A program made the position numbers. A stretch of 26,395 bases of DNA, taken from the UHGV virus genome UHGV-0085321; one strand, given 5' to 3'. The DNA comes from a virus. Below, piece by piece: positions 18,601-21,600 of this stretch; the stretch's first letter is position 1, and every line of letters begins with the position of its first letter.

Positions 18601-21600
18601 CCGATAATCACCCACAGGAAAATGCTACCGAAAATCACACCCACCAGGTCTTTACCTTCGCCTACCAACCGGACAAAACAGCCAGCAACCACAATGAACG
18701 TCGCCACCATCCACAGAGCACCGAGAAGCCTCAATGCAGAGAAAATCAACTCAACCACGATTTACTCTCCCCCAAATAAAAAGGCCTGCGATTACCAGCA
18801 GGCCTTTATCTTTTTTTAACACGCTTTCGAGTCCTTTTAGATTTTTCCTTAAGATATTCCGCAAGTTTATCCTCATCATTATTAAATTGAGATAAAAGCT
18901 CATGCTCGCAATTAAGTGCTTTACTCGCATAAGTTCCATATAGTTTCTTTCTTGCTAGTGCTGCTATGAATGCTGCATCTTCTTTGCTATCGAAATACCC
19001 TAACGATATTGTCTTATTTTTATAACCAACATAAGACTTCCACCTGCCAGTTGTCTTATCCCAAGACACTCCAATCGCACCGGATGTGTTTAACCTATTC
19101 CCTACAATGTTTCTTGCATTCTGCTCCTCTGTTGCCAGTCTTAGATTTGAAATCCTATTGTCAAGTCTGTTCCCATTTACATGATCAATAAACTTAGGAG
19201 GCCATTTTTTGTATACATAGAACCAAGCAAGTCTATGCGCATAATACAAAACATTATTTATGCTAATGCATATATAACCACCACTAACACCTCCAGCAAT
19301 ACTACCTTTTACTCTTACTACTGAATTTGTTTTTAGCCATTTAAATATTCCTGTTTCTGAGTCATATGATAATGTTGACAGAAGCTCATCGTGATCAATT
19401 AGTTTTTTTATTCGCATAAAGAATATACTTAATAATATATACAGTAAGAACCATTAGTAACGATAACCCTGCTATCAGCTCAGTGATGTAGATGGTCATT
19501 TAATACTCCGTCACGTTTTCCTGTCGCCACGCCTCGTCATATTCCGATTTCTGCATATTGGCGATGTAGCTATATGGCGATCCTGATTCAAGTTGCAGGA
19601 ACTGGTGCGATTGCTCGTCAAGGAACAACGGGACACCACCTTCCCAACCTTCGCCGTTACGTTGTTTTTCAAGCATCAAAACAGATGCCGGAGATGCCAG
19701 TAGCTGTTCGTCCTTCTCTGACATCTTTTCACCACTCTGAACTCTCTGTAACGCTCTCTCGCGAGCCTTGTTACGCCAGATGATGAAAAGGTTGTCTGTC
19801 AGGTCTGTTATCGCTCCAGAGCCTTTTACGTCCATTTTCCCGGTTGGTTTTTCTTCGCTGTCTCCTTTTCGCGAGTGAGTAACGAGAATGACGTGGGAGT
19901 TTGTTTTATTTTTGAAGTCACATATCGAGTCAACAAACGCCTTCTGCCCGTTATAGTCATCGTCGCCTATGCCACATTTCATCAGGCTGTCGATGATGAA
20001 TAACTGGATGCCGTATCGGCGGCGAGCGTAGTCGAATATTTCGATCAGCCTGTCGGCTTTCGCCGTTCCGGTCAGGCCAAACACCCAAAGTCTTTCGTCA
20101 TAAAATTTAAATGCAGAGTCAATTTCCAGCACTGGCGGCATCTTGCAGCACGTCGCCTGACGGGTAAGGCGCTTAAGGAGAATACCAGGCTTCAGCTCAA
20201 GTGACGCGATGCACGTCTTCACACCCTGACGCATTGCCTCAAGTGCCATATGCCCGACAACCTCCGTTTTTCCGTGACCGTTCACACCATTGACCAGCGT
20301 CAACTCTGCCTCACGGAACTGGAATTTATCTGCCAGAGATTCCCACGGTGGATTAAACAGATACTGCTGCTTGCCGTAGAAAGCGTTGATAGTGTCCTGG
20401 TAAAACTCGCGCGCGCTGTAGAGTTCTTCAGGGTCGAAGTAGGATGCCGTGCCGATGTACTGCCAGATTTCATCCTCGGTAACACTGTTCATCAGGCATT
20501 CATTGATGTCTTTGTACGGCAGAGTAACAAGACGGCAACGATGTTCACCGAGTCGGCTTGCGATTTCCCTTGCGGCTTCACGACCAACATCATCAACGTC
20601 CATCGAGATGAATATTTCCTCAAACCTGTCGAGGTTGTGATACTCAAACTCAATCCACTGTTGCTTAGCGCCTTTCCCGCCACCAAACGGCACGGATAAC
20701 GCCGAGATGCCGTATTGCGCATAGCTCATACAATCAATTTCGCCTTCGCAAAGTACAACCGCCCTCACGCCAGCGTCCAGAGCCTGCCATCCGAACAGGC
20801 AAGGTTCGCAATCACCTTCTGCCATAATGACTTTCTTCCCGTCCGGGCGCTCAGTGCTGATTCGCTTGACCTGCAACAACTCACCATCGCGTTTGTACGG
20901 AATCACCAGAGCATCCAGTTCCCGCTCTCCATTCCACACCTTGCCGCTGACAACCTCGTAGCGCTTTACGATTTCTGGCGATATGCCACGCGATTGCAGG
21001 TACTCAAGATGGGATTCTGTTCTGGTAACGTAGCGGGCGATTTTCTTGCGATCAGGTCTGGAGAATTTTTTCTCACGTTTGGCATCGAAATGGTGATCGT
21101 CATCCTTGATACCGAGAAATGCTTTCGCTTCCTGCATAGCCTGATGCAGGTTAATTCCACGACATGCCATCCACAAATCAAGCATGTCACCGCCGTCTCC
21201 CTCGGCGAAATCAGCCCATTTTTTCTTGCCGCTAAGGTTGACCTTAAGGCTGTTTCCCTTGTCACCGTTGACATTACCGGCAACCCACTCATGCCCCTCT
21301 TTCTTGCCGTTTGGCAACAGGTGCGGAGCCACCCTGTCAACCTGCGCCCAAAGCAGGTCGCTCAGTTCACTTGGAGTCATTACGCTGACCTCAGATCGAG
21401 ACGGTTAAACCAGAACTCAACGAATGCAGAACTAAGCCAGCCATGGTTATAGCCAGCGATAAGTAACGATTTGATTCTGGATCTCATGGTTCACCTGTCG
21501 AAAAACACGTAGCCAGTTTTCGATACGGTGATTGCGGATGATGGTTTGGGTTGCGGTTGAATAGTTTCTGGCTTCTCGTCGTTCCAGCGTTGACCGTTCA

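Follow-up and report, generated by a model that had tools for sequence, protein, structure and literature searches.

The virus genome UHGV-0085321, a stretch of 26,395 nucleotides (nt) which is referred to below as the window, carries on its minus strand an inserted cassette of 665 nt (18803-19467) that consists of a 50-nt AT-rich leader and an intact open reading frame (ORF; 18806-19417) for an HNH-AP2 endonuclease of 203 amino acids. We consider it probable that this cassette is a free-standing homing endonuclease element which entered the short linker at tR2, an intrinsic terminator of lambdoid phages. By its gene content the window is a λ-like prophage, with structural genes approximately 97% identical to those of phage λ, and the cassette is part of the early rightward operon, where it separates the replication module from the nin module.

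The extent of the cassette was determined by comparison with an allele that lacks it. Phage mEp043 (L001) has the same primase-helicase gene as the window and no island, and in this phage the stop codon of the gene is followed by ATGACCATCTACATCACTGAGCTTGTAACAGG, by CCTGCTGGTAATCGCAGGCCTTTTTATTTGGGGGAGAG on the other side of the insertion point, and then by ninB. Across the junction the empty mEp043 allele reads ...GAGCTTGTAACAGG joined directly to CCTGCTGGTAATC..., whereas the window reads ...GAGCTGATAGCAGG, then the cassette from GTTATCG to GATAAAGG, and then again CCTGCTGGTAATC... The comparison with relatives lacking the insert, which the initial annotation had recommended, thus defined the insertion site to within 3 nt, the remaining latitude being due to an AGG microhomology found at both junctions. 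The site is the 5′ foot of the tR2 stem in a conserved linker of approximately 70 bp between the replication and nin modules, and the cassette divides this linker-tR2 site into parts of 32 and 38 nt. The left half of the linker (19468-19499, minus strand, ATGACCATCTACATCACTGAGCTnnTAnCAGG) is backbone and not insert, and was found in identical or near-identical form ahead of tR2 in 122 empty and 29 occupied alleles, where it stands behind 13 distinct upstream gene ends.

The base five nt before the junction was G in 29/29 occupied alleles and A in 120 of the 122 empty ones. The two exceptional empty sites, both on IMG/VR contigs (L134 and L045), had the TAGCAGG haplotype that all other alleles show at occupied sites alone, and L045 also had a GA variant seen elsewhere only alongside the cassette. 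These two alleles may be precise losses of the cassette through the AGG repeat, or they may represent the ancestral target allele.

The base composition of the cassette is foreign. Its GC fraction was 0.340 compared with 0.513 for the whole window, and it is the lowest-GC stretch of 665 nt in the 26.4 kb, the minimum starting at 18802 and only 0.02% of such stretches being equally low. On a finer scale the GC fraction was 0.32-0.39 over approximately 18750-19500 against roughly 0.49 in the flanks, and the G+C content at third codon positions was 0.255 for the HNH-AP2 ORF against 0.576 for the primase-helicase gene. These values confirmed the AT-rich island which the initial annotation had placed between the replication and nin modules. 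The span it gave (18770-19502) does contain the features described, although it also takes in the 32 nt of backbone linker and the tR2 sequence at 18770-18802.

A scan of 18300-19800 gave no promoter-like site on the coding strand, and no Rfam intron family was matched in the window. The HNH-AP2 gene is free-standing, located between the primase-helicase stop codon and tR2 and not within an intron or intein, and the cassette has neither a promoter nor a terminator of its own, so that it is carried by the early operon just before tR2. A moron, as usually defined, is expressed from the prophage and brings a promoter and a terminator with it. Lambdoid morons are likewise extra DNA of deviant composition between two genes, but a moron was rejected as an explanation here on the result of the promoter scan and because the sole terminator is that of the backbone.

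This terminator (18770-18807, minus strand; stem 18807-18780, U-tract 18779-18770) was located by a terminator scan as a G+C-rich hairpin of 10 bp at 18780-18807 with a terminator-like score on both strands. The island had been credited with its own bidirectional terminator; the hairpin is real, but it belongs to the backbone as the conserved lambdoid tR2, and empty sites have it as well. The same 40 nt occurred in 376 phage records, among which the element is annotated as 'tR2 terminator' in Lahn1, Nil2 and Nil3 and as 'terminator' in HK620, HK75 and phage 21, and it should not be counted as part of the mobile element. The contribution of the cassette to the extended stem is limited to the outer AA (18807-18806), with which the HNH stop codon ends; the two A-U pairs so added change the free energy of the hairpin (ΔG) from -15.7 kcal/mol in the empty allele to -17.4 kcal/mol in the occupied one. 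The hairpin looks bidirectional because its upstream A-run is supplied by the terminal lysine codons of the cassette. A separate observation concerns the occupied allele L142, in which the tR2 3′ arm and U-tract are exchanged for unrelated sequence (…GCAGGTCTTTTGTTTGTATG…) just past the loop, apparently at a recombination joint inside the terminator.

The 203-residue protein can be divided into an I-HmuI-like HNH (His-Me finger) module at approximately residues 1-105, an AP2 module at approximately 112-163 and a helical tail rich in lysine and arginine at approximately 165-203. It matched Pfam HNH_3 with an E value of 8e-16 (57.8 bits, cutoff 24.8) and phrog_99, 'HNH endonuclease', with an E value of 3e-72, while the score for Pfam AP2 (32.6 bits) was slightly under the gathering score of 33.3; many of its homologues do have a match to this AP2 family (PF00847). 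In an alignment of 55 family members the invariant or near-invariant residues H61, R62, D78, H79, N87, N91, N100 and N103 were all retained. With the catalytic histidine following an aspartate and the conserved asparagines in place, as in a ββα-metal finger, the predicted protein is a member of the HNH_3 family, His-Me finger group 2.

An AlphaFold model built on the 55-sequence alignment had a predicted local distance difference test (pLDDT) score of 88.9. The HNH elements in this model (strands 76-79 and 92-95, helix 97-102) were aligned by Foldseek to I-HmuI (1u3e) with a probability of 1.00. The C-terminal part, with strands at 117-120, 125-132 and 135-142 and a helix at 145-163, was superposed on the AP2 domain of TEM1 (7et5) at 1.1 Å over 48 columns and on the GCC-box domain of AtERF1 (1gcc) at 1.4 Å over 51 columns, and as modeled it is an AP2 DNA-binding domain. 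Since sequence searches of the Protein Data Bank (PDB) gave weak matches (WRI1 AP2, E 1.5e-3; I-HmuI, E 0.39), the assignment of the domains rests on fold comparison, where a two-domain query likewise kept the E values modest. The HNH nuclease with an AP2-type DNA-binding domain that had been recognized at the outset was thus confirmed by the HNH_3 and phrog_99 matches and by the AP2 superposition. The lysine- and arginine-rich tail (…EKSKRTRKRVKKR, 18806-18925) was missing in all aligned relatives of 50% identity or less; it holds three of the seven replacement polymorphisms, and the model confidence is lower there (pLDDT 57-84).

Occupied and empty forms of the site were then counted in three collections. 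The initial annotation had named a lack of empty-site alleles among relatives as the outcome that would speak against an invading gene, and the counts clearly contradict such a lack. Among 385 records with linker-tR2 in the phage collection, 365 were uninterrupted and 19 contained the island at 98-99% identity. A set of 5,426 complete Escherichia coli genomes contained 2,561 tR2-type places in 1,781 genomes, with at least 80% of the island present in 126 genomes, and in IMG/VR there were at least 120 empty junctions against 22 occupied ones. Approximately 5% of equivalent lambdoid sites are therefore occupied (about 20 empty to one occupied), and always at the same nucleotide. The 29 occupied alleles followed at least seven upstream gene ends, including those of the primase-helicase, the DnaB-like P of HK022 and ren, and preceded at least five downstream modules. 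The length of the cassette was constant in all full copies (21/21), and their pairwise identity was 97.9-100% with a mean of 99.1%. When the 400 nt upstream were compared in five upstream contexts, only 0-5 nt separated an occupied allele from the empty allele closest to it, and since occupied and empty backbones are so nearly identical, gain or loss of the cassette has been recent and repeated on many backbones. Judged by these comparisons the cassette is sporadically present in the manner that characterizes a free-standing homing endonuclease gene, and the proposal that such a gene invaded an intergenic site is largely supported by the empty alleles, the constant cassette and the many backbones.

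A scan of genome contigs for relatives gave one E. coli copy and two distant matches to AP2 only, and thus no view of the site across species. The nearest homologue beyond the clade is a recombinant with 62% identity, and all others have 50% identity or less; relatives in this latter range occupy other intergenic slots in temperate phages, for example before ninB or before the terminase genes. A metagenome contig of a temperate phage from the European Nucleotide Archive (L010) contains two HNH-AP2 paralogues, at 1812-2303 and 4001-4489, one between the replication genes and ninB and the other upstream of the terminase genes, and the family therefore occupies several intergenic slots. The recombinant homologue was observed in a Logan contig of SRR10380363 (L009, 3919-4516) and also in L152. 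It agrees exactly with the window at the left junction, in the leader and over the 5′ portion of the HNH gene. Its 3′ part is divergent (62% overall identity, 171 amino acids) and is followed at once by rusA, tR2 and the ninA-ninG genes being absent. The nin region was apparently lost here when two HNH-AP2 paralogues recombined.

Comparison of the full copies indicated that the nuclease core is under purifying selection, small as the numbers are: within codons 52-114 there were eight synonymous changes against a single replacement codon (Y59K). The other replacement codons were 6, then 120 and 122 at the edge of the AP2 domain, and 193, 198 and 202 in the C-terminal tail. The copy in the window and all 21 full-length copies with a complete island encode the whole 203-residue protein. 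Broken copies were also found. One has a frameshift in the A-run (L145), and IS100 is located within the HNH ORF in ETEC-2264 (L008, 633-2434) and in L156. In phage 1717 (L016, approximately 1500; L159, approximately 1277) ISEc8 interrupts the leader after 8 nt and is flanked by a target duplication of 8 bp, GGTTATCG, and in phage F349 ISEc8 is also in the leader. Intact copies under selection together with occasional wrecks are what would be expected of a homing endonuclease gene. In ETEC-2264 the remainder of the gene has been divided into separate 'HNH' and 'AP2' pseudo-ORFs, and the insertion sequence hits on the cassette (ISEc8, IS100) are independent of each other. We had considered phage 1717 as an independent marker of the left boundary because its match begins at the inferred junction, but this was abandoned once the ISEc8 insertion was recognized there.

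A 34-codon mini-ORF (19395-19499, minus strand), noted in the initial annotation, is present as described, with its start in the TAAATG that follows the primase-helicase gene and a 23-nt overlap with the HNH start in another frame; however, it is a chimera and not a gene of the cassette. Its ATG, a Shine-Dalgarno-like motif and approximately the first 11 codons belong to a linker ORF of the backbone, and the last 23 codons are provided by the AT-rich leader of the cassette. Only residues 1-12 matched anything, and the match was to phrog_5907 (E 4e-4), to which the linker ORF corresponds. The length of the mini-ORF was not beyond chance in a shuffle test (P=0.11), and the cassette leader contained no polymorphism among the full copies that was usable as a test of selection. 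The 34-residue peptide is best read as a by-product of the insertion, neither a gene of the cassette nor a conserved peptide.

In empty alleles (for example L001, 2102-2180) the linker ORF has 20-31 codons, begins MTIYITEL[I/V]TGLLVIAGLFIWGR... and reads through the tR2 hairpin. At each of the 13 distinct upstream gene ends (13/13) a GGAG-like motif was found 5-11 nt before the linker ATG, together with a stop codon overlapping or abutting this ATG, and the linker ATG is probably used as a translation start. The HNH start (19417) lies inside the mini-ORF and has no Shine-Dalgarno motif, and the HNH gene may be translated by ribosomes delivered from the linker start. The variant alleles of the linker ORF were distributed by codon position as 13 third, 8 first and 3 second, a suggestive bias which we nevertheless dropped as evidence of coding because the search pattern had fixed many positions and the hairpin itself constrains the sequence. 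A more speculative proposal, to which we would give little weight, is that the linker is a translated mini-gene whose ribosomes traverse the tR2 hairpin and so couple termination at tR2 to translation of the replication gene just before it, the cassette then being a homing endonuclease that targets a regulatory ORF embedded in a terminator. With such coupling the cassette could be translated through the linker start, and the position of the HNH stop codon in the tR2 stem could restore the geometry of a ribosome at the terminator. Alternatively, the arrangement could merely be the sequence of a module joint.

If the cassette is a homing element as we propose, it would be transcribed together with the replication genes upon induction or infection and stay silent in the lysogen, and ribosomes coming from the overlapping backbone linker ORF may translate the HNH gene. 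The enzyme would bind through its AP2 domain and nick or cut linker-tR2 where this site is uninterrupted in a second lambdoid genome within the same cell. Repair by recombination with the genome that carries the cassette would then copy the cassette in, and the splitting of the site by the cassette would protect the occupied allele. We propose linker-tR2 as the target because the recipient backbones have no other sequence that all of them share. A preference of AP2 modules for G+C-rich sites has been reported (PMC10448857, citing Magnani et al. 2004); the sequence of the tR2 stem is AGGCCTGC/GCAGGCCT.

Several points weigh against homing. The target site was assigned purely by elimination, and polymorphism is sparse, with 16 variable sites in the ORF. 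No empty allele in our sample shared both flanks with the window in isogenic form; the sampled empty alleles that have the primase-helicase of the window continue into other downstream modules. Literature searches returned no experimental study of cleavage or homing by the protein of the window. The G five nt before the junction could reflect co-conversion or target immunity, but just as well a single ancestral insertion followed by recombination in the flanks. Ordinary homologous recombination, which shuffles lambdoid modules anyway, could produce the same pattern by acting in the conserved linker and tR2 flanks.

These last points lead to the alternative that the cassette is passive cargo, which entered once and was spread by ordinary Red/RecA recombination within the 32-nt linker and tR2 flanks, the nuclease being uninvolved and perhaps serving as a weapon against competing phages or having no current role. 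We regard this as a possible explanation, though not the probable one. On both sides the cassette adjoins the best-conserved short sequence in the early region of lambdoid phages (the 385 phage records above), which is a known type of mosaic joint. The invariable association of the G variant with the cassette (29/29) is as a single origin would predict, the copies are nearly clonal (97.9-100% identity), and the nearest homologue outside the clade is the recombinant at 62%, all others being at or below 50%. However, the homology on the left amounts to just 32 nt, yet the cassette has reached at least seven upstream contexts, often where an identical backbone also exists without it, and purifying selection on the nuclease core together with the retention of the catalytic residues would be unexpected of inert cargo.

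The location of the cassette, with the replication genes on one side and the nin recombination genes on the other, could also suggest a phage nuclease domesticated for the phage's own cycle, either in recombination-dependent replication with NinB/Orf and NinG/Rap or in packaging in the manner of the HNH protein HK97 gp74, and HNH nucleases are sometimes genuine members of lambdoid recombination modules (PMC12315714). The same source warns against assigning roles to mobile HNH genes from position, and we think domestication very unlikely given that approximately 95% of equivalent lambdoid phages do without the cassette, including functional λ, mEp043 and HK620, and that the gene has a sequence-specific AP2 module and a foreign composition. 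The packaging version was rejected, as the gene lies in the early region approximately 7 kb from the terminase genes, to which it is not adjacent, and is missing from the same approximately 95% of equivalents, whereas genes of the gp74 type adjoin the terminase and cos region and are conserved in their phage group. A decaying former homing endonuclease gene which is no longer active would agree with the broken copies (the frameshift in L145, IS100 in ETEC-2264 and L156, ISEc8 in the leaders of 1717 and F349), but this appears the least credible explanation: the copy in the window, like 21/21 full-length copies, encodes a complete 203-residue protein with every invariant family residue, and nearly every change seen in the HNH core is synonymous. 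The homing endonuclease cassette thus remains our preferred reading.

The early operon in which the cassette is found is ordered, entirely on the minus strand, as cII (22729-22430), an O-like initiator gene (22267-21491), the primase-helicase gene, the HNH gene, tR2, the nin genes and Q. The primase-helicase belongs to the replication module and is a Toprim/DnaB-like protein of 626 amino acids (19500-21380; Pfam Toprim_2, AAA_25 and DnaB_C; phrog_239), the stop codon of its gene abutting the linker ATG (TAAATG). The first gene past tR2 is a GTG-initiated ORF at the NinA position (18552-18758, minus strand), which encodes a hydrophobic protein of 68 amino acids matching phrog_1165, a family with its function listed as unknown; the same downstream module follows the cassette in HK022. 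One more small ORF separates it from NinB (18262-17852), and beyond this are NinG (17513-16902), a phosphatase gene and then the Q antiterminator (16059-15541), while cI, rexA, rexB and N are carried on the opposite strand. Directly downstream of Q on the minus strand are genes for tRNA-Asn(GTT) and tRNA-Thr(TGT) (15322-15477), a position at which other lambdoid and Shiga-toxin phages also have tRNAs. The sole other patch of the window with a GC fraction below 0.40 is at 23960-24743 on the plus strand and contains the abortive-infection genes rexA and rexB, which lie downstream of cI (Pfam RexA, E 1e-97; RexB, E 8.5e-92; PADLOC in agreement).

The gene entered public records with the HK022 genome, and its annotation as an HNH or homing endonuclease is routine, so its discovery value is small. 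What has been gained is a mapped insertion point, and with it a concrete candidate target of 70 bp. The cassette is a marker for one of the major mosaic joints in lambdoid and Shiga-toxin phages and, if active, would drive exchange of the replication and nin modules, as has been proposed elsewhere for nuclease genes at module boundaries (PMC10448857). A slightly unusual lead is the conserved and apparently translated linker ORF that spans tR2.

The cassette is already known as an optional annotated element: HK022 gene 57 (AUM59825.1 / NP_597900), PA28 gp34 and phage 1717 gp29 are the same gene in the same 665-nt cassette at the same nucleotide position, with 98-99% identity. HK022 gene 57 is described as a 'putative endonuclease' (cited in the phage 1717 record) and PA28 gp34 as a 'homing endonuclease' or 'HNH endonuclease', and the gene is also annotated in several Shiga-toxin phages. 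The upstream neighbor differs, being the primase-helicase in the window, the DnaB-like P in HK022 and ren in PA28, while in 1717 the leader is interrupted by ISEc8. No experimental tests of the HK022, PA28 or 1717 copies were found in the literature searched.

The seg and mob genes of phage T4 are optional intergenic genes without a full transcription unit of their own, and in mixed infection their products cleave relatives lacking the cassette, with co-conversion of the flanks. The cassette resembles them in being optional, intergenic and without a full transcription unit. However, the Seg proteins are GIY-YIG enzymes and the Mob proteins belong to another HNH group, and their targets are in neighboring conserved genes, whereas the neighbors of the cassette vary and only the 70-bp linker is conserved.

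With I-HmuI of phage SPO1 (PDB 1U3E; zf-His_Me_endon / HNH_3), which nicks one strand, the protein shares the N-terminal nuclease fold and the DH...N...N motif, although the two are only marginally similar in sequence (E 0.39). The gene for I-HmuI lies within a group I intron, and its product binds DNA through NUMOD and helix-turn-helix elements, whereas the gene in the window is free-standing in a linker and encodes an AP2 module. HNH_3 proteins with AP2 modules have been grouped with I-HmuI (PMC5714182, group 2). The combination of HNH and AP2 is a recognized homing endonuclease architecture (PMC10448857, citing Magnani et al. 2004; PMC5714182). The HNH-AP2 enzymes of cyanobacteria, ciliates and phages (Magnani et al. 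2004) and the IPA-HNH proteins of Vibrio phage ICP1 (PMC10448857) have, as here, an N-terminal HNH and a C-terminal AP2 domain and are encoded by free-standing genes at a boundary of module exchange. The domains of the ICP1 IPA-HNH proteins are too divergent for Pfam HNH_3, which the protein of the window matches strongly, and their genes are located at the edge of an essential gene, whereas the cassette of the window occupies a terminator-bearing intergenic linker of a temperate lambdoid phage.

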